A DNA stretch of 64,000 nucleotides from a virus: the IMG/VR virus record IMGVR_UViG_3300011115_000879, positions 32,001 to 96,000 of that record. One strand, written 5' to 3'. A model generated the notes under the pieces. That model searched no databases. It was not told where the DNA came from and saw only the letters and a program-made list of their open reading frames with translations. Numbering within the stretch: the first letter of the stretch is position 1; every line of letters starts with the position of its first letter. A program made the position numbers and the translations under genes. Below are positions 3,952-63,648 of the stretch, piece by piece.

Positions 3952-4068
3952 ATGGGACAAGGTAAACGAAAGGATCAAATAGATTCAAGTGAACGAATAG
4001 CTGATATTTGTATTATAGTTTGTGGTGTATCACTACTTATAGCTATACTAATTAACTTATTAAAATAG
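3952..4068 (+). CDS. 38-aa membrane peptide (not in ORF track)
   Basis: MGQGKRK...ICIIVCGVSLLIAILINLLK; fills the gap exactly. Confidence 0.55.
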   Translation: MGQGKRKDQIDSSERIADICIIVCGVSLLIAILINLLK

Positions 4069-4108
4069 GCAAAGTAAAAATTGTATATTTATTTCAAATA
4101 AAAAAATT

Positions 4109-4315
4109 ATGACTACTAATAATAATAATAACTTACAATTGAAATGGGATTGTTTGATGATTGAAAGAATGGTTAATGATTTAGTGTTAAAAGGTATACA
4201 TAAGAATGAAGATTTAGTTGCTGCTGTAGATGAATTCTATCCACCAACTACTGAATTTGAAATGGAACACTACTCAGAAGCTATTATTTATGCTAAATTA
4301 TCATTATTAAATTAG
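4109..4315 (+). CDS. Hypothetical protein
   Basis: Follows cassette at 4068. Confidence 0.7.
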   Translation: MTTNNNNNLQLKWDCLMIERMVNDLVLKGIHKNEDLVAAVDEFYPPTTEFEMEHYSEAIIYAKLSLLN

Positions 4316-4574
4316 GCAAAATAAAAATCGTACATTCACCTCGAACCAAAAATAAAATAAAATATGGCTATTCAAACGAAAGATCAAGCGCAAGGTAAAG
4401 TAGATAAGAAATTAGACAGAGTATTGAATAAGCCTAAAAAGATTGTTCCATTGATGGAACGTAATTTTAACGATTTAGCTACATTGGAAGAACAATTTGA
4501 GTGGTTAAAACGTAAGCAACGCCAAAAAGATAGGGAGGCAAAATAAAAATCGTACATTCACCTCGAACCAAAAA
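4314..4574 (+). repeat. Exact 39-bp direct repeat flanking one gene
   Basis: AGGCAAAATAAAAATCGTACATTCACCTCGAACCAAAAA at 4314 and 4536. Confidence 0.9.
4364..4546 (+). CDS. Hypothetical protein
   Basis: Lies between the two identical cassettes. Confidence 0.7.
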   Translation: MAIQTKDQAQGKVDKKLDRVLNKPKKIVPLMERNFNDLATLEEQFEWLKRKQRQKDREAK

Positions 4575-4584
4575 ATAATAAGTT

Positions 4585-5376
4585 ATGTCAAACGAATTAA
4601 ATTCAACCGCAGTAATGTCTAACAACAGTTATTCATTAGATCAAATCAAGTCAATAGCTCCATCAGTGTTTACTGTTGATAAAGCTGCTCATTTAACGGA
4701 TAAGTATATCCAAACTCCAACATCCCGTGTTGTAGAGGATTTAATGGCTTTAGGATGGCAAGTAACTAAAGCACAAGAAGTTAAAGCACGTAAAGGTAAA
4801 GGATTCCAAAAACATATGGTTGTGTTTCGCAACCCAGATATTATGATTAAGGGTAAAGGTGGTGATGATTCATTCCCACAAATTATATTAACTAATAGTC
4901 ATGATGGTAAAGCAGCATTTAATTTTAGGGTAGGTATTTTCAGATTAATCTGCAGTAACGGTTTAGTTATTAGTGATGCTGATTTTAATAATGTATCTAT
5001 TCGTCATATTAATTATACATTTGAGACATTACAAACTAAAATTGGTGAAGTAATTACTAAATTACCTGGTTTAGTTGCTAAAATTAATTTATTCAAATCA
5101 ACTCAATTAAGTGAGACAGCAATGGCTGAATTTGCTATTAAAGCCGCTTCATTACGTACTAAACAAAGTACAAATGTAGTAGAATTATTAAGAGCAGAAC
5201 GTGACTTAGATAGAGGTAATGATCTATGGACTGTATTTAATCGTGTTCAAGAGAAAATAATTAGCGGTGGGTTTGGTTATGGTAGGAAAAATCGTAAGGC
5301 AAGGTCAATTAAAAACTTTCAACAAGATATTAAGTTGAATGAAGAATTATTTGAATTAGCCGAGACTTATCTATAG
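4585..5376 (+). CDS. DUF932/DUF945-family protein
   Basis: NSHDG, FRLICSNG and LWTVFNRVQE motifs. Confidence 0.85.
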   Translation: MSNELNSTAVMSNNSYSLDQIKSIAPSVFTVDKAAHLTDKYIQTPTSRVVEDLMALGWQVTKAQEVKARKGKGFQKHMVVFRNPDIMIKGKGGDDSFPQIILTNSHDGKAAFNFRVGIFRLICSNGLVISDADFNNVSIRHINYTFETLQTKIGEVITKLPGLVAKINLFKSTQLSETAMAEFAIKAASLRTKQSTNVVELLRAERDLDRGNDLWTVFNRVQEKIISGGFGYGRKNRKARSIKNFQQDIKLNEELFELAETYL

Positions 5377-5382
5377 TAAAAT

Positions 5383-5415
5383 AAGGGGGATGGCAACGTC
5401 CCCCTTTTACATTTA
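5383..5415 (+). terminator. Hairpin terminator overlapping promoter cassette
   Basis: AAGGGGGATG-GCAA-CGTCCCCCTT then T-run and TACATTTA. Confidence 0.75.
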
Positions 5416-5433
5416 ATCAAACAAAAATAAGTT

Positions 5434-5976
5434 ATGAAAAAAGTATTAGTAATTCATCCAAACGACAGTAGTACCGATTTTTTAAAACCGATATACGCTA
5501 ATATACCTAACGCTACTGTTATTAGAGGTGGGATGACTAGAGCTGATGTGGATCAAGAAATTATCAAGCATGATCGTATTATAATGTTAGGACATGGTTC
5601 ACCAGGTGGTTTATTTTCTATAGGTGAATTTGAAGGTAGTTATGGATTTATTATCAGTCATGGTACAGCAGATTTACTAAGAGATAAAGAATGTATATTC
5701 ATTTGGTGTAATGCAGATAAATTTGTTAAGGAACATAACCTAAAAGGTTTATATAGCGGGATGTTTATTAGCGAAGTTGGTGAAGCGTTTTATTGTGAAA
5801 CACCAGCATCACAAGAAGTAGTAACTGAATCGAATGATTATTTTGCTAATGAATTAGGTAAAGTAAGTAATTTAGATTTAAACGAAATACATAATTACAT
5901 CAAAACCAATTACGGTATATTAGCTGAGAGTAATGATGTAGCAAATTACAATAACAATAGAATATATTTAGTATGA
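5434..5976 (+). CDS. Hypothetical protein, possible caspase/CHAT-like fold
   Basis: hhhhGHG..hhhhWC pattern. Confidence 0.55.
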   Translation: MKKVLVIHPNDSSTDFLKPIYANIPNATVIRGGMTRADVDQEIIKHDRIIMLGHGSPGGLFSIGEFEGSYGFIISHGTADLLRDKECIFIWCNADKFVKEHNLKGLYSGMFISEVGEAFYCETPASQEVVTESNDYFANELGKVSNLDLNEIHNYIKTNYGILAESNDVANYNNNRIYLV

Positions 5977-30400: not shown

Positions 30401-32622
30401 CTAATAGTACTACACAAAGCATATACACAGCACAATTTAATACAGCAAGTATAACACCACAATATAGTCCACTATATAATAATTTAACAGGTGATAAAAA
30501 ACCATACTTTACAGGTGAACTAAGTGGTAGTGTAGTAGATGTACATCAATATTTTACAGATAATTACAATCAATATTTAGGTGATTGGGATGTATATAAT
30601 TCACAACGTACTATATCTCAAAGCATTAATTTAAATAGCTTCAATCATTCTGATTGGAACGTATTATTGAATAATGTTTCTAAAAACGTTACTTCTAATA
30701 AACGTAAAGGCATACAATATATCTATGGTACAACAGGTAGTATTACTAGTAGTGTTGAATTACAAGACTCAAACCTATCATTAAGATCATATCAAATATC
30801 ACGCTATGAAGGTTCTAAAGTAACTAGTGCAACATATAATACTTACACTACTGGTGATAAATCATATGGTAAAACAGCAGCTATTGATCATCAATCACTC
30901 AAAGTGGCTTGGGTAAAAAATATACCAAGTCAAAGTTTAAATTTCTATGATAAAACCACTATCGATTTAAAATATCTAGTTGATAGTAGTACTTCATTAA
31001 TTGAATTATCATTATCAAACACTAATCTTTGTGAAGTACAAAATACATTTAAATCAGGAACACCGGTAGTATTATCAATATCTGATGTACAAAAACCAAC
31101 TAATCAAACTACTTTAAATGGTCTTAAAACTATATTTAGAGGTGGATATTCATATGATCCTATATTATATAGAGAAAATAATGAAACCTTAACATTCACT
31201 CACAATAATATAGTAAGCTCAGCATCGGCCCACTTAGGGGTAAAAGCATATAATTTGGATTCTTATTTATGGGCAGCGGGTGGAGATGGACGTACTATGA
31301 AGGTTGATCCAAATAAAATATCTAACCAAATTGGAGGAGGAACACAGTTTGGACAAGACGGAGCATCAATATATAAAATAAACTCAGTTAATGCTCCTGA
31401 AGGTAGTCAAATATCATACGCTAAAACATTAGCATCTTCTTGGGATATTAAACAATTACAATCAACTTATACTAATAAAGATGCCGTAACAAGTAAATAT
31501 CCGACGTATGGTTGGGATGTAAGAGGAGGAACTGATAACAAATATGTTTATTCTTTTAATGTATTAAATTTTAATAATACTAATTTAAATTTAAGCGCAT
31601 ACAATACAGAACCGGATCCTAATTCTTATGCTATAGATGGTGGTGGTAACTACACATATAAGGTACCACGAACTAGTAACTATAAATTAAGCGGAAGTAT
31701 TCCTTTCTATTTTAGTGGAGATGACACTAAAACCACAGATGGTAATAATAATAATATGTCGGGGTATATTAGATTTAAAGTAATGGGATTAGTACAAAGC
31801 AGCAGAACACCAGATATAGAAACATCATGGATAACAGTAGCCAATACTTTTCTTACTCCACTTGTACTAGGAAACCAGGTAAATTATAGCTCTAATCTTA
31901 ATGCTATTAAATACGATGGTAATTCTAATAGTAGTCTTTTTGATTGTAGTCTGAATAGTACAGCTAATTTAATAGAAGGTGATTATATTAGATTTCAATT
32001 TTATCTATTTGATAATATGGGGTTCTTTTACGACACCAGAAATTTTCTTTTCATGATAAATAGTAGCCCAGATAGTTTTAGTAGAAAACCATCTCCTGCT
32101 TTTTTTGAAATATATGATACTCTCACACCTTTTACTAAATACAATTATACTTCTACATATAGTCAAATACCACCATTATTTATAACGGCATCTGCTAATA
32201 GTATAGTATTTGATCCAACAGCCCAATCTTTAATTAATAGTGATGCTATATTCACACCATCATCTCCTGCTAATAATTATTATTCACCTGTAGTAGATTA
32301 TTTTGGAATACAAAAACAAGATTTATTAAGAGTAGGACAATTTAATAATCCAAACCCCGTATATTACGAAGTATTAAATACATATACGGCTTCTGGACAA
32401 ACTTATGCTACATTAGATAGAACAATAGATACTGGATCTTTTAACAATGCTCAAAGTTTTGCTATTTTAAGACCAAAACCAAATGAAACATCTGTAATTA
32501 TAAATTATAGAAAACAACTTGGAGATGTATCACAAACTATATTAATTCCATATGACGCAAATGATACAATAAAAAATAGCGTAGGTAATATATTTAAAAC
32601 ACTTAATACTAATTTAAAATAA
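27487..32622 (+). CDS. Large baseplate/tail protein with LamG-like insertion
   Basis: 1711 aa; KTKGT..G baseplate-like motif; YTIEAWV..WHHVA..WLDG LamG signature. Confidence 0.7.
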   Translation: MADNIKIVGNILNTTTVSRYSSEDTNLISSRILQENFGETGDYIEVYLYDAGGNLLNINYDYLSYKLPSDANLKPGTTTQPNTTGNIQTTNIGVISTLSNPTSSLYPIIEIDPVMDIQNYGYSSGEFNIRYNLFKNKISNNTDQALFIKEISADRTEIRLASTTLTNDEIESVVNSIIDEINNSDYYVDYLLNFGNNEQYIAVNVALNKATTGYEVLFKLYQPLPLSVQEKTSLWIVEEKVNPYIFDINLDKLITPPPPPTLRGPNFDIPIENQGTIATAYGTYSNLISSLQNKSYYQVLNLMATQSANVNVDYTDFNNFVFFGSAKQRVINFHVKAKQIEDYNTLISTYTPQTASIPSLITEINQYSSNIKDITTQFDGYEYYLYFESSSYTWPKSGSLKPYSLLSTTNSTVTAWYNNLILVAENYDQNNYDNLEFAIPPFLTEDDTNAPFLLFLNMIGNYFDDIWIYIKSITDLNLANNNLDYGISKDLVYERLKSLGIKLYNSQAGESVSQYLIGANTGSSIFDNNFTITGSYLNNIPRKDLTSELYKRIYHNLPLLVKTKGTVAGLEHLNTIFGITSSILNVKEFGGSTKAELINGYNNDKVRIVQNTITGSVLSSMLSLQTFPTASSAFRDNDTHYIDISFSPQTQIDTYISESISISNPTWSLDDYIGDPRQQYNNSYSDLNNQRILYYQTGNTGSLSFNSGSALFNGTNSSIQVTPSTGISFGTSDYTIEAWVYFLDPNNSDPIIGTNNAGSDLSFYRENNSLFIDSFNDNTNEYKFPSITIGSWHHVAASRSGSAETVWLDGVRSTSGILLGNFNFSGITNYVGSAPAFPWNFNGLLTNVKAIKGSYLYNPASSSISIPTSLFTTTIINSTTWQLPLISSSLAPGVNSINNVLFSLYNPFTQAYPGFTGSLMDYNGFIRLIDYFDNSLFKMLADFTPERTSLSTGVTINSPVLERNKTSFANPTNSTTQSIYTAQFNTASITPQYSPLYNNLTGDKKPYFTGELSGSVVDVHQYFTDNYNQYLGDWDVYNSQRTISQSINLNSFNHSDWNVLLNNVSKNVTSNKRKGIQYIYGTTGSITSSVELQDSNLSLRSYQISRYEGSKVTSATYNTYTTGDKSYGKTAAIDHQSLKVAWVKNIPSQSLNFYDKTTIDLKYLVDSSTSLIELSLSNTNLCEVQNTFKSGTPVVLSISDVQKPTNQTTLNGLKTIFRGGYSYDPILYRENNETLTFTHNNIVSSASAHLGVKAYNLDSYLWAAGGDGRTMKVDPNKISNQIGGGTQFGQDGASIYKINSVNAPEGSQISYAKTLASSWDIKQLQSTYTNKDAVTSKYPTYGWDVRGGTDNKYVYSFNVLNFNNTNLNLSAYNTEPDPNSYAIDGGGNYTYKVPRTSNYKLSGSIPFYFSGDDTKTTDGNNNNMSGYIRFKVMGLVQSSRTPDIETSWITVANTFLTPLVLGNQVNYSSNLNAIKYDGNSNSSLFDCSLNSTANLIEGDYIRFQFYLFDNMGFFYDTRNFLFMINSSPDSFSRKPSPAFFEIYDTLTPFTKYNYTSTYSQIPPLFITASANSIVFDPTAQSLINSDAIFTPSSPANNYYSPVVDYFGIQKQDLLRVGQFNNPNPVYYEVLNTYTASGQTYATLDRTIDTGSFNNAQSFAILRPKPNETSVIINYRKQLGDVSQTILIPYDANDTIKNSVGNIFKTLNTNLK

Positions 32623-35905: not shown

Positions 35906-36343
35906 ATGAATAATTGGTTATATGAATACATCCCACTACAGGATGACTTTACAACAGACAATTACGGTTTTATTTATAAAATCACTAATATAGAGACAAA
36001 TAAATTCTACATTGGTAGAAAATCATTTGTCCATAACAAGAAGAAAAAACTCACTAAAAAAGAATTAGCCGAACAACCTATAGCACGTGGTCGTAAACCA
36101 ACTACTAAAGTAGAACAAGTCGACAGCGGCTGGCGTGATTATTGGGGTTCATCTAAAGAATTATTAGCTGATGTTAAATTATTAGGTAAAGATAAATTCG
36201 AACGTGAAATATTAAAGTTCTGCCCTACTAAAAAGCAACTCACATTCTACGAAATACAATACCAAATCCAACACTCAGTACTATTTACTGAAAGCTACAA
36301 CGACAACATAGGAGGTAAATACTTCCGTAAAGACTTTGTATAG
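35906..36343 (+). CDS. GIY-YIG endonuclease (Seg-like)
   Basis: GFIYKITN..KFYIG.K, YWGSS, F.REIL, YN.NI.G. Confidence 0.85.
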   Translation: MNNWLYEYIPLQDDFTTDNYGFIYKITNIETNKFYIGRKSFVHNKKKKLTKKELAEQPIARGRKPTTKVEQVDSGWRDYWGSSKELLADVKLLGKDKFEREILKFCPTKKQLTFYEIQYQIQHSVLFTESYNDNIGGKYFRKDFV

Positions 36344-38103: not shown

Positions 38104-38135
38104 AGGTGGCTTGACTAAGTTGAGCCACCTTTTTT
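38104..38135 (+). terminator. Intrinsic terminator
   Basis: AGGTGGCTTGAC-TAA-GTTGAGCCACCT followed by T-run. Confidence 0.85.
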
Positions 38136-38157: not shown

Positions 38158-39129
38158 ATGATTAAACTAATAAGTATCGTTAAACAAATCCTATTAGAGG
38201 GTGGTAACGTATTTGGCACTACAGATTCAATTCAAAAAGCAAACATTGAACCTACAGTAGAAGTATTTAGAAGTCAATTATCTAAAATATTTCCTGCAAA
38301 AGCAGCATCCTTCAAATCATTTGAAAAATTAAGTTCAGCAGGTAAAAAAGATGTATCGGGTGATATTGATTTATCATACGATGTTAAAAATTTATTTCCT
38401 GGAGGTAAACCTGATTTTAAAGGTTGGGGTGTAGATGAAACAAAATACAACGAATTAGTAGCAAAATATACTAAAAGTTCTAGAACAGCATCACCTGAAA
38501 AAATTCAATTACGTGCAATGATTGTACTAATTGGAGAAAAAATTAATGATGCTTTAGAAGATGTTGAAGTAGATACCAAAGCCTCTGGTTCTGGATCTAT
38601 ATTTTGTGCTGTACCACAATACGGACCTGATGGTAAAAAATTAGGTAAAGCAGTTCAAACTGATATTAATATAGGTAATCCAGAATGGTTACGCTTTAGC
38701 TACTATTCTAACACATACTCAGGTAATGTTAAGGGATTACACCGTACACAACTTATGTTAGCTTTATTCTCAAATAAAGGTAGAACATTTGGTCATTCAA
38801 CTGGTGTTGTAGATAAAGAGACAGGAACACAAGAAGCAAAATCACCACAAGAAGCTATTAAATTATTAAATAAATTATATAATTTTAATATAACTCAAGA
38901 TATTTTAGATGATTATTTTAAATTAGAAGATTATATGAAGAAAAATCTATCTAAAGAAGAATATGGTTCTATTATGGATAGATATTTAAAAATATTAGAC
39001 TCAACACGAGCAGATATACCTGATAATCTACAACAATATTGGATTGACAATCAGGAAAGATTAGGATTGAAAGGTAAATTCTTACCGGATACATCTAACT
39101 TAATACCTCACCAAACCGAAAAAGCATAA
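38158..39129 (+). CDS. Pol-beta-superfamily nucleotidyltransferase-like protein with leader peptide
   Basis: LSSAGKK..SGDIDL..VQTD; leader MIKLISIVKQILLE. Confidence 0.65.
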   Translation: MIKLISIVKQILLEGGNVFGTTDSIQKANIEPTVEVFRSQLSKIFPAKAASFKSFEKLSSAGKKDVSGDIDLSYDVKNLFPGGKPDFKGWGVDETKYNELVAKYTKSSRTASPEKIQLRAMIVLIGEKINDALEDVEVDTKASGSGSIFCAVPQYGPDGKKLGKAVQTDINIGNPEWLRFSYYSNTYSGNVKGLHRTQLMLALFSNKGRTFGHSTGVVDKETGTQEAKSPQEAIKLLNKLYNFNITQDILDDYFKLEDYMKKNLSKEEYGSIMDRYLKILDSTRADIPDNLQQYWIDNQERLGLKGKFLPDTSNLIPHQTEKA

Positions 39130-42100
39130 TGTCCGGATCAATAGGAGCAAATAGAATACCAAGATCAGCAGTTGAAGCTACACTTAAAGCCTATACTGAT
39201 AAAGTATTAAGGAAATTTCCTGGCTTTAAATCAGCTAAAATATCTGGCTCATATAATACTAGTGTAAAACCAGATCATGGTGATTTGGATTTAGTTATTC
39301 ATATTGAAGGAGACGAAACTGATAAGAAAATATTAAAGCAAAAATTTGCTGCTTTTCTTAACTCATTATCTGAAATTCCTCCATTTAAATCAGGACGCAA
39401 TGTTGGTAAAAAATCAGCAGGTACAGGTGATATAGTAATTACACAATTCCCTATTGAAGGATATCCAGACTTAACTGTACAGATTGACAATATGATTGTT
39501 ATGTCTGAACAAGAAAGTGACTATAGAAAAAGCTTTTTAGATTTACCGGCTGAAAAACAAGGTTTATTGGTTGGTTTAGCTAAAGCTATATTATTAGAAG
39601 AAAATCCACAAGATATATTTTCGCGTTTAGGTATCACAAATATACCTAAATTAGAGGATAATCAAGAATTTGAATTTAATTTATCAAATAAAGGATTAAC
39701 ATTACGTTTAGTTACATTGAGTGATAATTTTAAAGAAACAGGTAGAAACGAAATATGGACATCATTTAATTGGAGTGATGTAGAAAAACTATTTAAGAAC
39801 TATAATTTAAATGGAAGCTGGGAAGATTTATTAGATGATATAAAAAATAAATTACAAAATCCACGTTCTAAAAACCGTGTAAAAGGAGTATTTAATTCAC
39901 TAGTTGTAATAAATGCTGGTGAAGCTGGGACCCCAAAAGGTGATAATAAATTAAAAGCAAAAGAAAAAGTGAGTGCAACATTATCTGAAAATAATTTAGG
40001 ACGCTATTTAGTGTCTATGTTATTAGAACAAGAAGAAGAAACACAACCAACAATAGCAATATTTCCTGGTGCTTTTAAACCACCTCATAAAGGACACTTT
40101 GATGTAGTAGAACAACTATTAAAAGTATCTGATCAAGTAGTGGTACTAGTATCTCCTAAAACAAGAGATGGCATTACAGCAGATGAAAGTATGGCTGTAT
40201 GGAATTTATATAAAGCTAAATTAGATGGTTCTGTTGAAGTAAGAGTATCAGCAATTACCCCTATTAAAGAAACATATGACGTTGTAGCAGATAACCCAGA
40301 TACTGAATTTAGAGTAGCATTTGGTAAAGGTGAAATAGATCGTTACAAAACGATTGAAAAATATCCAAATGTAAAAATATTTGATGCTGGTGAAGTAGAA
40401 GGAGTAAGTGCAACAGGATTAAGAGCAGCTATCGTTAGCAAAAATGAAGAAAAAATTAAAGAATATCTACCAGAAGGAATTACTATAGAAGAATTCATGT
40501 CTGCTTTAAATAAACCAGTAGAAACATCAACAGCACCACCAGCTGAACCAGCACCCGCTGAACCAGCTCCTGCTGCACCAGAACAACCATTACAAGAATC
40601 ACCACCGCTTGAATTTGAACAAGACGATTATCAAGATTATGTATTACAAAATAGAAATAAAATAGAGAAAGCAGCGTATTTCTTTAATTTACCTATTAGT
40701 GATATGGAATATGCGTTTAATGCTGGTAAAGAAGTAGTATTATCTGATGATATGTGGTCTAAATTAGATAATAGCAAATCATATAAAATGAAAACATTAG
40801 ATGATGCTATTCAACACGCTCTAAAATTAGGTATTAATCCTAAACCATATATTGATTTTATTAAAGGCGGTAAGGAAATGCCTTTACCACTTGTGTTGTG
40901 TTATGCTCAAGACAAATATTATTTAGTTGGTGGAGAGATAGTATTATCATTATATAGAGCATTAGGTTCAATCCCTACAGTAATACAAGCTACATTAAAT
41001 TTAAAAATTAATTCACCATCGTATCCTGTAATGGTAAAGGAAGGTTTAATTAAAGAATATTCTGAAAGTCTAATTAAAAGATTAATACAAAAATATAAAA
41101 TAGAACAACCAGATTTATCTGATGAAGATATAAGAGCAGAAATATTAGAATTTGATAAAATAAAAGATAAATTAGATCCTACTAAACGAGATATAACTAA
41201 ATATGATTGGAGTACATTACAATCAACAATACAAGATAATAAATCAACTCGCATTAAAGCTGGTAAAGTTGATAAGAATAAGGTAGAAGGTGATGTTAAT
41301 TTAGTTTATAATAAGAATGGCATTAGAATATATAAAGCTGACTCTAAAAAAGCCTGTATTAAGTATGGTAATGGATATAGTTTCTGTATATCAGCTCGTG
41401 GAAGTGGTAATGCATTCGATACTTATAGATTTGGAGATGAAGATGAAGAACAAGATCCAGGATTACCGTATTTTGTATTTGATGATAATAAATCTTCTGC
41501 TAAAGATGAAAAAGATAAATTCATTGATCAGGAACATTTATTAGTTATATTCGCCCTAGAATATGGAGGATATGCAGTAACAAAAGCTAATAATGAGGGA
41601 GAAGATTGGTTTGAAACTTTTGATAAATTAGTATCTAAATATCCATATCTTAATGGATTAGAAAATACAATTAAATATGAAAATCCTGATAAAAAAATTA
41701 GTCTAGGTAGAGAATTTACTAAATATGTTGATAATAAAGCAACAGAATTGATAACTATCTGGCTGAATAAAAATAAGGATTTTTATCGAAAAGAATCGGC
41801 CTTTGCACCTAACTTTAATAACTTACCAAATAAAAGTAAACAATTTATTCAAGATATATTGGATGGAAAAAGAGTTATGTATAGCATAACAAATAAATCT
41901 CCATCTGGTAATGGTACTTCTATAATAACTACTAGTCCTGAAGAAGCACAAAAAGAATTAGAAAAATATATAAAAAAATCAGACGATAATTTTAATAACA
42001 ATATTTCATCTTTATCTATAGAAAAACAAAAAGACGTACTTGATTATTATCATAAATATCCATTTCATTTAGTACAAATCCCTATGAATCAATCTACAAT

Positions 42101-42578
42101 TGATTATTTAGAAGGATTAGTTAGACTTGCTGATGTAAATACTAACAATGTAACTCAATATATGACATCTTGGCCTATTAAACATATTGGTCTTTTAGAA
42201 AACCAAGAAACTTCAAATAAAAAAGTAGATTCAAGTATAATAAAAGAATTTATTAAATTTGCTATTAGAAAACTACAAATATCTAAAATACCAGAAGGAT
42301 TAACATTATCATACAACAATGATGAAGCTAAATCTCGTCACTCATTTGGTACATTTGACCCAAATACTGGTAAAATATGGCTATACGTTAAAAATAGAAA
42401 CATGGCTGATATATTACGCACACTAGCACATGAATTAGTTCATCGTAAACAAGACGAAGATGGACGTATCGATTATAGTAGCGGCGAAACAGGATCAGAA
42501 ATTGAAAACGAAGCAAATGCTCAAGCAGGTATACTATTAAGAGACTTTGGTAAACAAAACGAAAAAATATATCAATAA
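39129..42578 (+). CDS. Multidomain polyprotein: Pol-beta NTase, HIGH-type NTase, two unknown modules, HExxH metallopeptidase
   Basis: GS..GDLD..QID; FPGAFKPPHKGH..SAT; YG.G..FCI; RTLAHELVH..E.EANA. Confidence 0.75.
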   Translation: MSGSIGANRIPRSAVEATLKAYTDKVLRKFPGFKSAKISGSYNTSVKPDHGDLDLVIHIEGDETDKKILKQKFAAFLNSLSEIPPFKSGRNVGKKSAGTGDIVITQFPIEGYPDLTVQIDNMIVMSEQESDYRKSFLDLPAEKQGLLVGLAKAILLEENPQDIFSRLGITNIPKLEDNQEFEFNLSNKGLTLRLVTLSDNFKETGRNEIWTSFNWSDVEKLFKNYNLNGSWEDLLDDIKNKLQNPRSKNRVKGVFNSLVVINAGEAGTPKGDNKLKAKEKVSATLSENNLGRYLVSMLLEQEEETQPTIAIFPGAFKPPHKGHFDVVEQLLKVSDQVVVLVSPKTRDGITADESMAVWNLYKAKLDGSVEVRVSAITPIKETYDVVADNPDTEFRVAFGKGEIDRYKTIEKYPNVKIFDAGEVEGVSATGLRAAIVSKNEEKIKEYLPEGITIEEFMSALNKPVETSTAPPAEPAPAEPAPAAPEQPLQESPPLEFEQDDYQDYVLQNRNKIEKAAYFFNLPISDMEYAFNAGKEVVLSDDMWSKLDNSKSYKMKTLDDAIQHALKLGINPKPYIDFIKGGKEMPLPLVLCYAQDKYYLVGGEIVLSLYRALGSIPTVIQATLNLKINSPSYPVMVKEGLIKEYSESLIKRLIQKYKIEQPDLSDEDIRAEILEFDKIKDKLDPTKRDITKYDWSTLQSTIQDNKSTRIKAGKVDKNKVEGDVNLVYNKNGIRIYKADSKKACIKYGNGYSFCISARGSGNAFDTYRFGDEDEEQDPGLPYFVFDDNKSSAKDEKDKFIDQEHLLVIFALEYGGYAVTKANNEGEDWFETFDKLVSKYPYLNGLENTIKYENPDKKISLGREFTKYVDNKATELITIWLNKNKDFYRKESAFAPNFNNLPNKSKQFIQDILDGKRVMYSITNKSPSGNGTSIITTSPEEAQKELEKYIKKSDDNFNNNISSLSIEKQKDVLDYYHKYPFHLVQIPMNQSTIDYLEGLVRLADVNTNNVTQYMTSWPIKHIGLLENQETSNKKVDSSIIKEFIKFAIRKLQISKIPEGLTLSYNNDEAKSRHSFGTFDPNTGKIWLYVKNRNMADILRTLAHELVHRKQDEDGRIDYSSGETGSEIENEANAQAGILLRDFGKQNEKIYQ

Positions 42579-44233: not shown

Positions 44234-46897
44234 ATGAGAGCAATAGATAAATTCATATTACACGTAGCACATAATCTTTTCCCTTTAAATGAATATTCAG
44301 CAGGAGAAGTATCCCGCTTAATGATTCAATTTAGAGAAGAAGCTGATGATTTAAATATCCAAATTACAGACGATCAACTTAAAGCATATATCAATCGATT
44401 TGATACTTTAAAAAATTCTCCTAAAGTACAGGAGAAAGATTTACGTAAATATACTTTATCAAAACTAATTAAATTAGTAACATCATCCGCCGATGCTGAA
44501 ACAGAAGGTGATGAGGAAGATCAAACACCAGATGTAGTATATCAAGATGGTGGTATTACAATATGGAATGGCTCTAAAGAAGGTAATTGTATTGCTTATG
44601 GTAGAGGAGAAAAATGGTGTATCACTAGAGGATCATTTGGTAACTACCGCTATAGCGCAGATAAAGGATATCCAGTATTTTATTTAGCTAAAAATACTAA
44701 TATATCAGATAGTGATAAATTAAGCTTTGTTGCTATTCAAGTTAGAAATGTAACAGATGACGATAAAAAATACGTCTATACCGATAGAAGTAACTCCCCA
44801 TATGAATCATCAGCAATGAATTTTAGTGCATTATTATCTAAAATCCCTTGGTTGAACGATATTCCAAATATTAGAGGAATATTACGTTATATCCCTTTAA
44901 ATAATAATGAAAAAGTAAATCAAAAATATAAAAACGAATCGGTTAGTATTAGAGAATGGATAAAAATGCCATTTAATACTAAAAAACAATATTTAGTTGT
45001 TAGGGGTGCACGTACTTTATTTAATGATATAGAAAATACAGAATTTGTTGGAAAATATTTACCACAATATCCACAAATAGCTGAATTTATTGTTATTACT
45101 CCTGGTATCATTGATAATGTTTATTTATTAGCAAATTTAGATAAATTTAGCAATCAAGATAGAAGATCAATAACAGCTAACATACAACAACCAATTGATT
45201 TAAGATACCTTTCAACAGAAAACTTTCCATTTGATGTTAAAAAATTATTAACATTATTAAAAAAATGGAAAATTAGAAGTGATGAAAGATTATATGTTAC
45301 TAAAAATGGTGAAGCCATTGTTAAATTAAAATTTGGAGATACAGTTAATATAGGAGTATACACAGCGGAAGATGATTATCCAAATGTTAAATTAAATCAA
45401 CGCACATCAAAATACTTACTTGACTACCCAGAACTAGATAAGATACCATTCAATGTAATGATAAAATTAGCTACTGATGGTGTTATAGATAAAAGCTTAT
45501 TAGATACAATTATAGAAAAAGCTAAAACAGATGAAGATTCTGCTATTGTAGTTAAAGATATTAATGGTAAAGAAATTATAGTCGATTCAAATTCATTTGC
45601 ATCATATAAAATTGAAGATGGTAAAATATCTAAAATACCATTTGATGATGAAGATGTACAAGCTGTATTTGCTGCTGAAAAAGATAATTTATCATTCCAA
45701 CAAAGTGCAGTTGATACTATTAGAATAGCAGCTACTGATGGACAAGATCTACCACCAAGATTAGATAAAGAAGCATTTTTATCCATTGTTAAAGCCACAC
45801 CATACGATAAAAGAACATACACAGATGGGCGATATCAATATGTTGTTTTAGTACCAGAAGGACAAGGTGAGAGAGATATGTTTACAAAATCTACAAACCT
45901 ATACGATAGTATGTTAACTACTGGAGCTGATTTTGGACGTGCTGGTGATTGGAGAGCATTTGATCATAAAGGTGCAATGCAGGAAAGAGATTATAGAGCT
46001 TACTTCAGCTGGATGAGAAATGAAAATAAAGTATATGAAAGTGAACGAGTAATAAGTAATTGGAGGACTACATGGGGTGGTGTAGGTGGTAAAAAAGCAT
46101 GGTTTGCAGCACAACCACCATTCTCACCAACAGACCAATACGCACCCGCAGTATCAGCAGACGGTACTTGTTATCTTGTTAATAAACAAAATTCAAGAGA
46201 AAGTCTTAAATTATCCGACTCAGCTAAATTAGTTAAAGCAAATATACCAGCCTCAATGGCTCGCCAATTAATAGGCGCTACACCAGATCAAGCTACTCCA
46301 GTAGCTGCAGCAGCTACAACACCAGTAGCAAACGCAGCAGCACCAGCAACCGGTAGAAGAGGTAGACCAGTAGGTGTAGCTAATGCTCCACGTGCTGCCG
46401 CTCCTGCAGCAGCAGCAGGAGAAGGATTTATAAATGTAGCTAACGTAATGGATGAAACTGGGTTAGTAGCTGCATTTAACGGATTACCACGTGCTGATAG
46501 AAATAGATTAAACGTAACAGATGGTGTACGTATTACTCCAAATGGAGATAGAGGTGCTGCTCGTCGCAATAATCAATTAGGTGAATTAGTTGGCAGTGTA
46601 GGTAGAGTTATTGGTATTGGAGCTAGTAAAATATACTTAATTCGTTTAAGAGCAAACCAACAAATAATAGCATCTATTAATATACAACCAGGTAATAGAA
46701 ACTACGTACTATTACCAAATGGCACAGCATTAACATTAAATTCACCAGCTGAATTAATGCAGGTATTACGCCAACGTAACTTAGTAGCTGAAGCTCGCAA
46801 TTACATTGTGCGTGAATATCTACACCACAACCCACAACATTTAGATGAGGTACGAGGTTTAATACAACAACACGTTAATGAAACCAAAAGAAAGTAA
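44234..46897 (+). CDS. Large putative head-internal protein
   Basis: 887 aa; N-terminal YG.G.KWCI module shared with 39129; RRGRP motif. Confidence 0.7.
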   Translation: MRAIDKFILHVAHNLFPLNEYSAGEVSRLMIQFREEADDLNIQITDDQLKAYINRFDTLKNSPKVQEKDLRKYTLSKLIKLVTSSADAETEGDEEDQTPDVVYQDGGITIWNGSKEGNCIAYGRGEKWCITRGSFGNYRYSADKGYPVFYLAKNTNISDSDKLSFVAIQVRNVTDDDKKYVYTDRSNSPYESSAMNFSALLSKIPWLNDIPNIRGILRYIPLNNNEKVNQKYKNESVSIREWIKMPFNTKKQYLVVRGARTLFNDIENTEFVGKYLPQYPQIAEFIVITPGIIDNVYLLANLDKFSNQDRRSITANIQQPIDLRYLSTENFPFDVKKLLTLLKKWKIRSDERLYVTKNGEAIVKLKFGDTVNIGVYTAEDDYPNVKLNQRTSKYLLDYPELDKIPFNVMIKLATDGVIDKSLLDTIIEKAKTDEDSAIVVKDINGKEIIVDSNSFASYKIEDGKISKIPFDDEDVQAVFAAEKDNLSFQQSAVDTIRIAATDGQDLPPRLDKEAFLSIVKATPYDKRTYTDGRYQYVVLVPEGQGERDMFTKSTNLYDSMLTTGADFGRAGDWRAFDHKGAMQERDYRAYFSWMRNENKVYESERVISNWRTTWGGVGGKKAWFAAQPPFSPTDQYAPAVSADGTCYLVNKQNSRESLKLSDSAKLVKANIPASMARQLIGATPDQATPVAAAATTPVANAAAPATGRRGRPVGVANAPRAAAPAAAAGEGFINVANVMDETGLVAAFNGLPRADRNRLNVTDGVRITPNGDRGAARRNNQLGELVGSVGRVIGIGASKIYLIRLRANQQIIASINIQPGNRNYVLLPNGTALTLNSPAELMQVLRQRNLVAEARNYIVREYLHHNPQHLDEVRGLIQQHVNETKRK

Positions 46898-49686: not shown

Positions 49687-49819
49687 ACATACAGACTAGA
49701 TTCATTGCCTAGTCGCATCGGAATAAAATAATCAAAGTAGTGGCTCATCTTAATAGATGGGCCATCTTCTATTTGAAAAATAGGTGGTTGGTCTGATGGA
49801 AAGTCGTATATTTATTGTC

Positions 49820-53487: not shown

Positions 53488-53745
53488 ATGGAAGAAAGAA
53501 GAGGAAGACCAAAAGAAATAATAGTAGAAGAAGCACCACGTAAGTATACTAAAGTATATGAGTACGAGGATTCAACAGAAACTTGGGTTTATAATTTAGA
53601 CAAACATCATGGTCCTATTAGCGTTGATATTAAGTATAAGAACAATGTTGACAAAAATTGGGCTAAGAGACAAAAAGAACAAAAGCGAATAGATAGTAGT
53701 ATGCGCAAAATAAAAAAAGCACAATCACTTAAAACACAAAAATAA
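53488..53745 (+). CDS. Basic protein with N-terminal RRGRPK
   Basis: ATG 4 nt after promoter box. Confidence 0.65.
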   Translation: MEERRGRPKEIIVEEAPRKYTKVYEYEDSTETWVYNLDKHHGPISVDIKYKNNVDKNWAKRQKEQKRIDSSMRKIKKAQSLKTQK

Positions 53746-54266
53746 TGAGAATAGGGTTATGTGGAACAATTAGTGTAGGAAAAACTACATTAGTAAAAGC
53801 GTTAAAAGAATTAGAGCAATTTAAAGATTATGAAATTGCAACTGAACGTAGTAAATACTTACGCGATCAAGGTGTAGCATTAAATACAGATTCTACAATA
53901 AAAGGTCAATTGGTGTTTGCTGCTGAACGTAGTATTGAATTAATGAAAGAAAATATCATTACTGATAGAACAATATATGATGTTACTGCATTTACACTCA
54001 GTGCTAAATCAATTGGGTGGACTGAAAAGCGATATTTTACTGAATTATTAATGATACTACGCGACGAATATGATTTACTAATTTATGTATCGCCTGAAGG
54101 TGTTGAACTTGAAGATAATGGTGTTCGTACTACAGATGCTGAATATAGAGAAAAAATTGATCTTTGTATAAAAGAAATGTTAGACGAATTCAAACACAAA
54201 AATTTATTAACAGTAAAAGGTACAACTGAAGAACGTATCGCTACTATCATCTCTCATCTAAATTAA
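53745..54266 (+). CDS. P-loop NTPase/kinase (NadR/AAA_28-like)
   Basis: GTISVGKTT, TDRT..D, EDNGVR. Confidence 0.85.
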   Translation: MRIGLCGTISVGKTTLVKALKELEQFKDYEIATERSKYLRDQGVALNTDSTIKGQLVFAAERSIELMKENIITDRTIYDVTAFTLSAKSIGWTEKRYFTELLMILRDEYDLLIYVSPEGVELEDNGVRTTDAEYREKIDLCIKEMLDEFKHKNLLTVKGTTEERIATIISHLN

Positions 54267-56020: not shown

Positions 56021-56338
56021 ATGAAACAACCAATCAACGAAATCCGCAGAATGCAGCAATTAGCTGGTATCTTAAATGAAGAAATGGGTGAGTTTAAAGA
56101 GGTTCCATCAAGTGCCGTAGTTAGTGGAAAATCTATTGTTACTGACGGTGAAAATTACTACGTATACAAAACCTCGTTAGGAGCATCTAACGAAAATACA
56201 GCTTTCTTTGTATACGATATGAAAGGTAATGAACTAAATAAATATGATCTAGTGGATGATAAAGCGACTATAGGACAAAGTCGTAAACTAAAAGCAGCAG
56301 TAGACGCATTAGAACAAATAAGCGGATTAGGTTTATAA
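56021..56338 (+). CDS. Putative head-internal protein (MKQPINEIRRMQQLAGILNE leader)
   Basis: Leader nearly identical to that of 63672. Confidence 0.7.
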   Translation: MKQPINEIRRMQQLAGILNEEMGEFKEVPSSAVVSGKSIVTDGENYYVYKTSLGASNENTAFFVYDMKGNELNKYDLVDDKATIGQSRKLKAAVDALEQISGLGL

Positions 56339-61994: not shown

Positions 61995-63032
61995 ATGAAA
62001 AGTGTAAAACAACAATACATCGATTTACAAGAAGGTAAAATGTCTCAAACGCAATTTATGCGTAATATACGTTTAACCTTACCTCAGTATGTTACTAATG
62101 TAACATCATTTGATGATTCAGTTAGAATCCTTAAAAATAAAGGTATATTATCTGAAGCTGATACAAAATCATCTGAAGGTGAAGGTAAATGGAAAACAGT
62201 TACTGGTAAAGATTTATATAGTCATTTTAAAGAAATTGACAATTTAAATGGTCAAGAAGTATTAGTTGGTGTTGATTATGAAATGGAAAAAAATCCTGAG
62301 CTAACTAAACTAGAAGCTCAAAAGATTGTAATTAAAAACCTAAAGAAAAATCAATTTTACTACACAGCACAAGATGTATCTGGTGTAGAAGGATATGAGA
62401 TGGAATATATGGGTTCTAAAGAAGATGTAAAGGCTCGTCAAATGCAATATCTTGAAAAAAACATGAGCAATGTTGTTGACAAGAAAATGGGTATGAAACC
62501 AGTTAAAGGCTTCGAAAACGCAAAAGCATCATCAAATAAAGCATCTAAAGAAACTAATAAAAGTGGAGAAATAGATATAATGTCATTAGTAGCTAAAACC
62601 GTTCGTGGTTTAGTTAAAATGGACGCTACCGGTGAAAAAGCTAAGAAAATTGTAATGAAGGAAGGTGAAGAAATGGATACAATGGCATTAGTACAACGTT
62701 TCATTAATAGCAATCCTACATTAAGACAACACACCACAGATATTGAACTTGAAAATAGCGGTAAAGGTGTTATTTTGAAATACGGATTTTATGATACATT
62801 ACCTGATGAATTATATTCTAAATTAGAATTACAATTTGATGTTAATGGAATGGATGATAATACAGATGAGGAAGGTGAAAAAGTATATTATACATTAACA
62901 CCAAAAAAATCACCATATAACTCACAATACTCAGGTGTCGGTTTACAATCACCATTAGAAGAAGAAATACGCAAACAAGTAAAAGAAATGTTTGATGGTC
63001 GTGACAATTTAACTGATATTGAAAATTTTTAA
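61995..63032 (+). CDS. Putative prohead core/internal protein
   Basis: Multiple hydrophobic-x-E sites; adjacent to protease. Confidence 0.65.
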   Translation: MKSVKQQYIDLQEGKMSQTQFMRNIRLTLPQYVTNVTSFDDSVRILKNKGILSEADTKSSEGEGKWKTVTGKDLYSHFKEIDNLNGQEVLVGVDYEMEKNPELTKLEAQKIVIKNLKKNQFYYTAQDVSGVEGYEMEYMGSKEDVKARQMQYLEKNMSNVVDKKMGMKPVKGFENAKASSNKASKETNKSGEIDIMSLVAKTVRGLVKMDATGEKAKKIVMKEGEEMDTMALVQRFINSNPTLRQHTTDIELENSGKGVILKYGFYDTLPDELYSKLELQFDVNGMDDNTDEEGEKVYYTLTPKKSPYNSQYSGVGLQSPLEEEIRKQVKEMFDGRDNLTDIENF

Positions 63033-63033
63033 T

Positions 63034-63648
63034 ATGAAGCAACTATTAATCGATCATACACCGTTTAACGTAGCAAAACTAACATTATCTGAAGCGAAAG
63101 CAATAGATAATGGTAGAATGCGTATTAAAGGTAAATTACAAGAAGCCGAACAAAAGAATGGCAATGGTCGTGTTTATCCTATGGAAGTATTGCGTCGCGA
63201 AGTAGAAAAATACATTGACGGCCCAATAAAATCTAATACAGCAATGGGTGAGTTAGATCACCCCGAAGCATCAATCGTTAACTTAAACAACGTATCACAC
63301 AATATTAAACGCATATGGTGGGAAGGTAATGACTTGATGGGTGAATTAGAATTACTAAATACACCATCAGGAAAAATTGCTCAAGAAATTATATCTGCAG
63401 GAATACCATTAGGTATATCTTCACGTGGTATGGGTTCAGTAAAGCAAATTGGTGAATCCGTAGAAGTACAAGACGATTTCGAATTAGTATGTTGGGATTT
63501 GGTATCATTACCATCAACACCAGATGCATATATGAGATTATCTGAAGGTAAACAAACATCAACAACACCATCAAAAGACTATAGTAAAATTAATTCATTA
63601 ATAACTGAAATAATTTGCACTCACACAGGTGTATGTGCATTATGTTAA
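63034..63648 (+). CDS. gp21: Prohead core protease (T4 gp21-like)
   Basis: N.NGRVYP, GELDHP, SH, GISSRGMGS, WDLV..PS. Confidence 0.93.
   Translation: MKQLLIDHTPFNVAKLTLSEAKAIDNGRMRIKGKLQEAEQKNGNGRVYPMEVLRREVEKYIDGPIKSNTAMGELDHPEASIVNLNNVSHNIKRIWWEGNDLMGELELLNTPSGKIAQEIISAGIPLGISSRGMGSVKQIGESVEVQDDFELVCWDLVSLPSTPDAYMRLSEGKQTSTTPSKDYSKINSLITEIICTHTGVCALC

Follow-up and report, generated by a model that had tools for sequence, protein, structure and literature searches.

A chain of enzyme modules with conserved head-protease-type sites at its joints in a phage with a T4-type head

We analyzed a stretch of 64,000 nucleotides (the window), positions 32,001 to 96,000 of the IMG/VR virus record IMGVR_UViG_3300011115_000879; the record is 159.6 kb long and estimated to be 94% complete. 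Nearly all genes in the window lie on one strand; they include baseplate, endolysin, terminase, portal and head-protease genes. One open reading frame (ORF) is intact and encodes a protein of 1149 amino acids (aa) in which five or six enzyme-like modules, here called A to E, follow one another; the ORF and its modular build are real. With slightly better than even confidence, judging from sequence comparisons, we take this protein to be a polyprotein that an aquatic phage with a T4-type head carries as capsid cargo and that would be diced at the module joints by the head protease.

The structure of the full 1149-aa protein was modeled with AlphaFold2 from 57 homologs (mean predicted local distance difference test score, pLDDT, 70.6). 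Borders of the modules agreed across three sources: sequence profiles, the AlphaFold2 model and natural architecture variants. Low pLDDT marked four linkers (residues 259–306, 464–499, 626–643 and 1006–1031), and the L/I-x-E sites at residues 285, 298, 488, 641 and 1022 were all situated in linkers with pLDDT <50, none of them inside a fold. An earlier sequence-only reading of this DNA had claimed that every domain junction carries a hydrophobic-x-E site; this holds for the four inter-module linkers and fails for the joint between the two parts of module D (D1 and D2), where no such site was found. The motifs named in that reading are all present where it had put them: TLSE at residue 284, MLLEQEEE at 297, the HIGH motif at 316, PLQE at 487, MVKEGLIKE at 635, YG.G..FCI at 746, GLLE at 1021 and HExxH at 1101.

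Conservation of the sites was counted over aligned homologs with identity down to 46%. At joint 1, [LI]-x-E was found in all 49 homologs having module A, and at joint 3 in all 38 homologs containing module D; the L-L-E site that ends an internal leader-like peptide (residues 288–300) was kept in 57 of 57 homologs, Glu300 being invariant. The [LIVM]-x-E motif was present at joint 2 in 53 of 54 homologs, while the spacer of linker 2 varies in both length and sequence, and at joint 4 in 38 of 45 homologs, mostly as [LM]-x-E-G-L.

The motif is common, and its total number in the protein is what composition predicts: 28 hydrophobic-x-E sites versus 29.6 ± 4.3 in shuffles, and 15 [LI]-x-E sites versus 14.4 ± 3.3. 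Global enrichment of hydrophobic-x-E was therefore rejected. On the other hand, the linkers, with 128 residues (11% of the length), hold 5 of the 15 [LI]-x-E sites (binomial P = 0.02), and [LI]-x-E was absent from intradomain loops of similar disorder. Thus, the joint sites exceed chance by placement and conservation, not by count. One could still argue that sites of a common motif in Glu-rich linkers were picked afterwards; the overall count, the occurrence of the broad site in 36% of 20-residue windows and the Glu content of the linkers (14% versus 8% overall, which raises the chance rate) agree with such a coincidence. We consider it very improbable, as the sites are kept at aligned positions in essentially all homologs. 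Furthermore, the breakpoints of natural architectures coincide with the sites, and the motif precedes D1 in unrelated proteins as well: [LIVMF]-x-E stands immediately before D1 in 67 of 101 leader-tagged proteins (with most of the others offset by one residue), and a joint-type motif precedes 9 of 11 internal copies of D1 from unrelated proteins.

The architectures among 240 homologs included ABCE (82), BCE (82), ABE (42), ABCDE (17), BCDE (7) and ABDE (5). Modules B and E are the constant ones, present in 240 of 240. Natural variants start or stop at residues 289, ∼463, ∼641–661 and ∼1015–1027; B-first homologs start at query residue 289, and in the ABDE homologs B is joined to D exactly at the I-K-E/Y-S site. 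The D insert is bounded on both sides by L-x-E-G-L; hence, forms with and without D differ by a single repeat-bounded block. As far as the aligned sequences tell, the breakpoints of natural architectures coincide with the [LIVM]-x-E joint sites.

A prohead protease of the T4 gp21 family (Peptidase_S77) is encoded near the end of the window; it also matches the head maturation protease family PHROG 207 with E = 3e-57. The protease gp21 of T4 cuts after L/I-x-E, and the 10-residue capsid targeting sequence (CTS) of T4, in which residues 4 and 7 serve targeting and residues 8 and 10 processing, loads proteins into the head; with Asp in place of Glu at the cut position, T4 proteins are still targeted but no longer processed (PMC9026906). 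For genome-wide counts of leaders we used our own ORF call of the whole genome (217 proteins). The motif [LI]-x-E with Glu at residue 10 occurred in 12 of the 217 proteins versus 2.2 expected (P = 3e-6), and the full T4-like leader pattern in 20 versus 4.8 expected; T4 leader sequences served as a pattern only. Eight proteins, otherwise unrelated, share the 10-residue N-terminus M-I-K-L-x-[ED]-L-[LI]-x-E. The major capsid protein exists as two paralogs of the gp23/gp24 type (PHROG 138, E = 1e-70), encoded at genome positions 97818-99527 and 99601-101304 (L019:2219-3928 and 4002-5705); their first ∼60 residues are nearly identical and contain four [LIV]-x-E sites, and the L-L-E-N-Q context of query residues 1021–1026 recurs in the propeptide region of both.

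The peptide of residues 288–300 has hydrophobic residues at positions −6, −3 and −2 and Glu at 0, the pattern of a T4 CTS; the full leader pattern is found at just two places in the protein, this being one of them. All 57 homologs share residues L290, Y293 and E300. In ∼90 B-first homologs Met plus segment 288–300 makes up the N-terminus, a 13-residue leader ending in L-L-E. The same type of leader sits directly on a D1-only protein (P0254), so the leader is portable and not a part of B. It is possible, though we hold it somewhat doubtful, that the peptide works internally, that is, that it addresses the whole chain, including the upstream passenger A, to the prohead and is excised by two flanking cuts.

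Table 1. Location of the target ORF, its modules and joints, and of related features in the window
Feature	Position (window)	Strand	Residues of the target protein	Description
Target ORF	39129..42578	+	1-1149	Intact, 1149 aa
Module A	39129..39902	+	1-258	Putative minimal family-X-polymerase-like (Pol beta superfamily) nucleotidyltransferase, palm + thumb
Joint site 1	39978..39989	+	284-287	T-L-x-E, end of module A, in linker 259-306
Internal leader-like peptide	39990..40028	+	288-300	Ends L-L-E
Module B	40047..40517	+	307-463	HIGH-class nucleotidyltransferase; H-x-G-H 320-323, S-A-T-x-L-R 427-432
Linker 2	40518..40625	+	464-499	Hypervariable Pro/Ala/Glu spacer, then conserved island; pLDDT < 50
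Joint site 2	40587-40598	+	487-490	P-L-Q-E, in the island of linker 2
Module C	40626..41003	+	500-625	Putative ParB/sulfiredoxin-like fold
Joint site 3	41049..41057	+	641-643	I-K-E, in linker 626-643, directly before the Y-S start of D1
Module D1	41058..41684	+	644-852	Invariant Cys743, Cys753, His803
Module D2	41685..42143	+	853-1005	Variable, mostly helical part of the D insert; poorly conserved in alignment A2
Joint site 4	42192..42200	+	1022-1024	L-L-E, in linker 1006-1031, before module E
Module E	42222..42578	+	1032-1149	Minimal zincin; HExxH 1101-1105, downstream E-N-E-A-N
Upstream gene A'	38158..39129	+		323 aa; Pol beta-type transferase, relative of A, behind a 14-residue leader with L-L-E at its end
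887-aa neighbor	44234..46897	+		20-residue leader ending L-N-E, then D1 paralog (44363-44869) starting Y-S
Intrinsic terminator	38104..38130	+		12-pair stem + T-run, closes replication genes
Terminator	49740..49765	+		11-pair stem, ends the 11-gene unit
Prohead protease	63019..63648	+		T4 gp21 family, Peptidase_S77; PF03420 108 bits, E 3.5e-32
M-I-K-L-type leaders	43383, 43616, 47419, 48309; genome 104751, 105094, 144738, 145387			Genome position = window position + 32000

The target gene lies in a unit of 11 genes bracketed by two strong terminators, one of which closes the replication genes upstream. All 10 other genes of the unit have an N-terminal [LI]-x-E within residues 8–25, the genome baseline being 27%. 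With terminators at both ends and leaders on all its neighbors in the unit, we assign the target gene to a leader-gene operon rather than to the replication module. Promoter scans added little: the T4 late promoter TATAAATA was not enriched (27 occurrences versus 25 expected), which is uninformative in an AT-rich genome, and the count from a sigma-70 scan was below shuffle expectation.

Several observations weigh against dicing in the head. An N-terminal leader is lacking: the protein's first 20 residues are within the fold of A, and A-V-E at residues 14–16 is not conserved. The gene follows primase and exonuclease genes and is in this respect syntenic with phage immuto, whose homolog carries the annotation NMNAT; the immuto homolog has no internal leader and the immuto ortholog of A' no N-terminal leader, and both proteins are kept. 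We know of no internal CTS that works in T4, and of no experimental precedent for an internal leader. Besides the Glu-rich composition of the linkers mentioned above, the whole segment 262–306 is conserved, so that its two sites do not make isolated islands, and the [LI]-x-E ahead of D1 could be a part of the D1 domain itself. Finally, packaging without any cut is on record for some polyvalent proteins, N4 vRNAP among them (PMC5512222).

The missing N-terminal leader, the neighboring replication genes and the leaderless immuto pair would be natural for a multi-domain enzyme that stays uncut in the cytoplasm, serves nucleotide or nicotinamide adenine dinucleotide (NAD) metabolism or else DNA/RNA repair, and is expressed together with the replication genes; its joints and internal leader would then be scars of gene fusion or favored recombination joints. 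In fact, some A-B forms resemble a recent fusion by stop-codon loss, with Met kept just before the leader. Still, a relic would be expected to decay, whereas E300, L290 and Y293 are invariant and the joints are kept down to 46% identity; moreover, a strong terminator separates the target gene from the replication genes, and every other gene in its transcription unit is leader-tagged. We regard the uncut enzyme as unlikely, though it deserves to be taken seriously.

The modules also exist as separate leader-tagged genes, a check suggested along with the sequence-only reading and one with a positive outcome: B in the ∼90 B-first proteins, D1 in 101 of 112 representatives, E in cyanophage B23 and a paralog of A in gene A'. 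The stand-alone E homolog, B23 gp332, has 124 residues (hhalign probability 99.1%, E = 9e-19), and its N-terminus is a 9-residue leader ending in L-R-E. Related HIGH transferases with 10-residue leaders of T4 type, M-K-[KN]-F-x-x-F-[LI]-T-E, are encoded in the cyanophages S-SRM01 (a Synechococcus phage, L015), S-SSM4 (L017) and S-RIM8 (L018), where they are labeled ‘cytidyltransferase’ (PHROG 395; gp258 in S-SRM01 and gp184 in S-RIM8). They share with module B the motifs F-x-P-P-x-x-G-H and E-G-V-S-A-[ST]-x-L-R, with similarity that is only local at profile level (hhalign E = 3e-4, 41 columns); they further possess a Pro/Glu-rich spacer, and an E-like zincin gene of the stand-alone kind adjoins (in S-SRM01 the ‘cytidyltransferase’ gene follows it). 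They differ from the protein analyzed here in having 290–440 residues and another C-terminal part, and in not being fused to A, C, D or E.

The virion proteome of S-CREM2 contained the cytidyltransferase, a protein frequent in cyanophage virion proteomes, for which carry-over calls for caution (PMC10665884). This detection lends indirect support to the presence of our protein in virions. We found no published link between the leaders of these cyanophage proteins and their repeated detection in virions.

The zincin at the C-terminus suggests another agent of cleavage. The protein could be a self-processing polyvalent protein whose module E cuts the linkers before packaging or after injection: E, together with B, is present in all 240 homologs, HExxH and its flanking residues are invariant, and Iyer et al. 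propose autoproteolysis by metallopeptidase (MPTase) domains of polyvalent proteins, P1 DdrB being processed before packaging (PMC5512222). However, [LI]-x-E is also found at the ends of leaders in many unrelated proteins lacking a zincin, as well as in the capsid propeptides; with the motif common to all of these, one shared protease is the simpler reading. The leader-tagged stand-alone E beside a leader-tagged HIGH transferase in cyanophages likewise suggests that E is not there for processing but is itself cargo, or acts as a partner of B. Self-processing therefore seems to us quite unlikely.

Returning to the polyprotein that would be cut by the head protease, we infer a scheme of loading, cutting and ejection. 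It builds on what the sequences show, namely modules that are shuffled at conserved joints, a gene for the protease and a system of leaders. The protein would be made from the leader-gene operon and would enter the prohead core via its internal leader, or together with the leader-tagged partner A'. The head protease would then cut after the joint Glu residues, releasing modules A to E separately; these would leave with the DNA and act at the very start of infection. Their roles may comprise nucleotide or NAD-type chemistry, action on nucleic acids, proteolysis and probably counter-defense. The polyprotein idea was already present in the sequence-only reading; the conserved sites in linkers, the leader-tagged module genes and the gp21-family protease give it partial support, while its ‘five separate effectors’ were a guess, D having two parts.

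If this scheme is true, T4-type aquatic phages would inject a changeable enzyme kit of nucleotidyltransferases, a protease and probable counter-defense domains, and recombination of modules at the sites of the head protease would suffice to make new kits. The paradigm of T4 internal proteins would thereby be extended from single small proteins to enzyme polyproteins, and the recurrent ‘cytidyltransferases’ in cyanophage virion proteomes would be explained. A leader plus [LI]-x-E joints could also become a sequence rule predicting the injected proteins of uncultured phages. Should internal targeting by peptide 288–300 be true as well, one could speculate about a plug-in system in these phages: a module bounded by [LI]-x-E, once spliced into a carrier chain, would be loaded, released and injected, and the D1 family (527 clusters) would serve generally to carry changing effectors, Acb1- and ART-type domains for example. 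Practical gains are the large D1 module family pointed out here and a design, taken from nature, by which foreign proteins could be packed into phage heads.

Among known systems, the internal proteins IPI, IPII, IPIII and Alt of T4 come first. Alt is an ADP-ribosyltransferase; the internal proteins and Alt are cut by gp21 and ejected with the DNA. As here, there is a gp21-family protease, the short leaders are hydrophobic at residues 4 and 7–8 with Glu at residue 10, and there is a diverse, shuffled set of leader-tagged genes; T4 carries enzymes as cargo, as our phage probably does. The T4 proteins are, however, single modules with an N-terminal leader, whereas the target protein links several enzyme modules into one chain, has a cutting motif at every joint and bears its leader-like peptide internally only (288–300). 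The protein cannot simply be counted among the CTS cargo proteins: an N-terminal leader, which defines that class, was looked for and not found. The system would work like the T4 internal proteins and Alt; its architecture is that of a polyvalent protein. What is new is that enzyme modules are chained through conserved joints of protease type, that a leader lies inside the chain, that A' is paired with A, and that D1 forms a large family.

The giant phages phiKZ, 201phi2-1 and SPN3US belong to another capsid lineage; their head-internal proteins are not chains of recognizable enzymes with stand-alone homologs, and their cut motif differs, with small residues at the −2 position. A protease related to gp21 cleaves many of these proteins behind a Glu residue, in some cases at more than one site (PMC9026906). 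Polyvalent proteins of phages and conjugative elements, described by Iyer, Burroughs, Anand, de Souza and Aravind in 2017, combine disparate catalytic domains, with Pol beta nucleotidyltransferase, ParB-like and zincin MPTase domains all represented, and for them early injection is predicted and domain shuffling is extensive, as here (PMC5512222). The protein of our phage likewise unites in one polypeptide domains of disparate predicted activity, namely a Pol X-like nucleotidyltransferase, a HIGH nucleotidyltransferase, a putative ParB/sulfiredoxin-like module and a zincin; its delivery into the host along with the DNA is suggested by the leader-tagged neighbors. For polyvalent proteins autoproteolysis by zincins was proposed, whereas here the joints carry the head-protease motif of leaders and capsid propeptides; a non-exhaustive text search of PMC5512222 turned up neither the HIGH transferase nor the D1 module.

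Module A has the GS motif, a D-x-D pair (D52 and D54) and a likely third carboxylate, D120. Foldseek matched it to the palm and thumb of Pol beta/lambda with E = 3e-5 to 2e-4 over ∼220 columns; VIA gave Z = 10.3 for the Pol beta palm-thumb and Z = 8.6 for the minimal Pol X of African swine fever virus, with 162 of 176 residues aligned. Pfam scores (16.6–19.9) were all below cut-off, DNA_pol_B_palm reaching 19.9 versus the 25-bit threshold, and the 8-kDa and fingers domains were not present.

The upstream gene A' is translationally coupled to the target gene, its stop codon overlapping the target-gene start. The alignment of A' with residues 9–58 of A was weak (hhalign E = 0.065). The ortholog of A' in phage immuto begins exactly at the predicted leader cut of A'. 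A' and A are gained or lost together: both are present in loci L005, L006 and L013, and both are absent from B-first loci. We considered that module A might be a separate gene in B-first phages; this was ruled out, since no A or A' was found within 5 kb upstream in L003, L004, L007–L009, L011 and L012, and A is simply absent from those loci.

Comparison with phage immuto showed that the presence of leaders co-varies between the adjacent A' and A-B genes. The immuto protein itself, gp088 (L001, 907 aa), consists of A, B, a different middle part, the HExxH module and a C-terminal extension that contains a second HExxH.

Module B scored 23.9 bits with CTP_transf_like (PF01467, E = 5e-5), above the cut-off of 21; a PDB profile search matched PPAT and NMNAT, and VIA gave Z = 12–14 for NaMN/NMN adenylyltransferases and PPAT. 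Residues H320, G322, H323, A428 and R432 are invariant and T429 nearly so. By profile, motifs and predicted fold, module B is an NMNAT/NaMNAT/PPAT-like HIGH adenylyltransferase.

The following module, C, was recognized in the sequence-only reading as an ‘unknown module’; it can now be assigned a putative ParB/sulfiredoxin (Srx)-like fold. In the PDB, Foldseek found PadC (E = 0.07) as well as ParB, Noc and Srx; VIA aligned 79 of 89 residues with Srx at Z = 5.7, and phage ParB/Srx proteins in BFVD matched with E = 5e-5 to 3e-3. There was no match in Pfam or in a PDB sequence search, and the usual Arg-rich catalytic motif (of GxxR or DGHHR type) is missing, its position reading G-G-E. Taken together, the fold matches weakly to moderately suggest a ParB/Srx-like module.

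Module E, a small zincin of Wss1/SprT-like appearance, matched Wss1 (VIA Z = 10.2 and 8.6) and YbeY-like proteins (Z about 9), and residues H1101, E1102, H1105, E1126 and E1128 are invariant. Its Pfam matches, M78, DUF6782 and Tox-MPTase3, were all under cut-off.

The sequence-only reading had described a single ‘YG.G..FCI module’ between C and E; this region is not one unit, and splits into the conserved D1 and the variable D2. An exhaustive search for D1 yielded a family of 527 clusters (50% identity) at E ≤ 1e-3. Among 112 representatives aligned to the D1 start, 101 have D1 behind a leader of 7–32 residues, with mode 14. Neither D1 nor D2 had a Pfam or PDB sequence match; fold searches, in which D1 was not folded alone, returned generic helical matches with Z < 7. 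Partners of D1 elsewhere included Acb1, ART-PolyVal and 2H phosphoesterase domains, with one match each. D1 may be described as a conserved carrier-like phage module, and its partners would fit an early counter-defense role.

We also considered PcfJ (PF14284) for D1, which profile searches did not support: D gave no match at E ≤ 1, and none was found at E ≤ 0.01 for sets of 30 and 50 family members. The only pointer to PcfJ was an Atlas neighbor cluster with a score of 0.86, 25% of whose members have PcfJ.

In the D1 family (P0246–P0393) as a whole, D1 is nearly always N-terminal behind a short leader, with variable C-terminal parts that include Acb1, ART-PolyVal, 2H/LigT and leucine-rich repeats; some members (P0372 and P0381) are fused to another HIGH transferase.

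A second, longer class of leaders seems to exist in this genome. The ORFs at 56021-56338, 63672-64598 and, in genome coordinates, 135760-136269 have in common a 20-residue N-terminus that ends in [IL]-x-E, and Glu at residue 20 is over-represented in the genome (11 versus 2.2 expected). The ORF at 63672-64598 (308 aa), just downstream of the protease gene, is a candidate scaffold with no family match. In the first capsid ORF the start is probably an internal Met, 28 codons after the listed TTG.

Two more genes of the window bear labels related to nucleotide chemistry. The 145-aa gene at 35906-36343 (+) is called ‘NAD synthetase’ in PHROG 447 and in the record of phage immuto; we rejected this label, as Pfam identifies a SegE-type GIY-YIG homing endonuclease (E = 8.6e-29), and the label looks like a propagated misannotation. 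A P-loop kinase of 173 aa at 53745-54266 (+) matches PHROG 2107, a thymidylate kinase family, and also an NMNAT family, PHROG 3462, in its C-terminal half (positions 168–335); it may phosphorylate nucleosides or ribosylnicotinamide and so be connected with the chemistry of module B.

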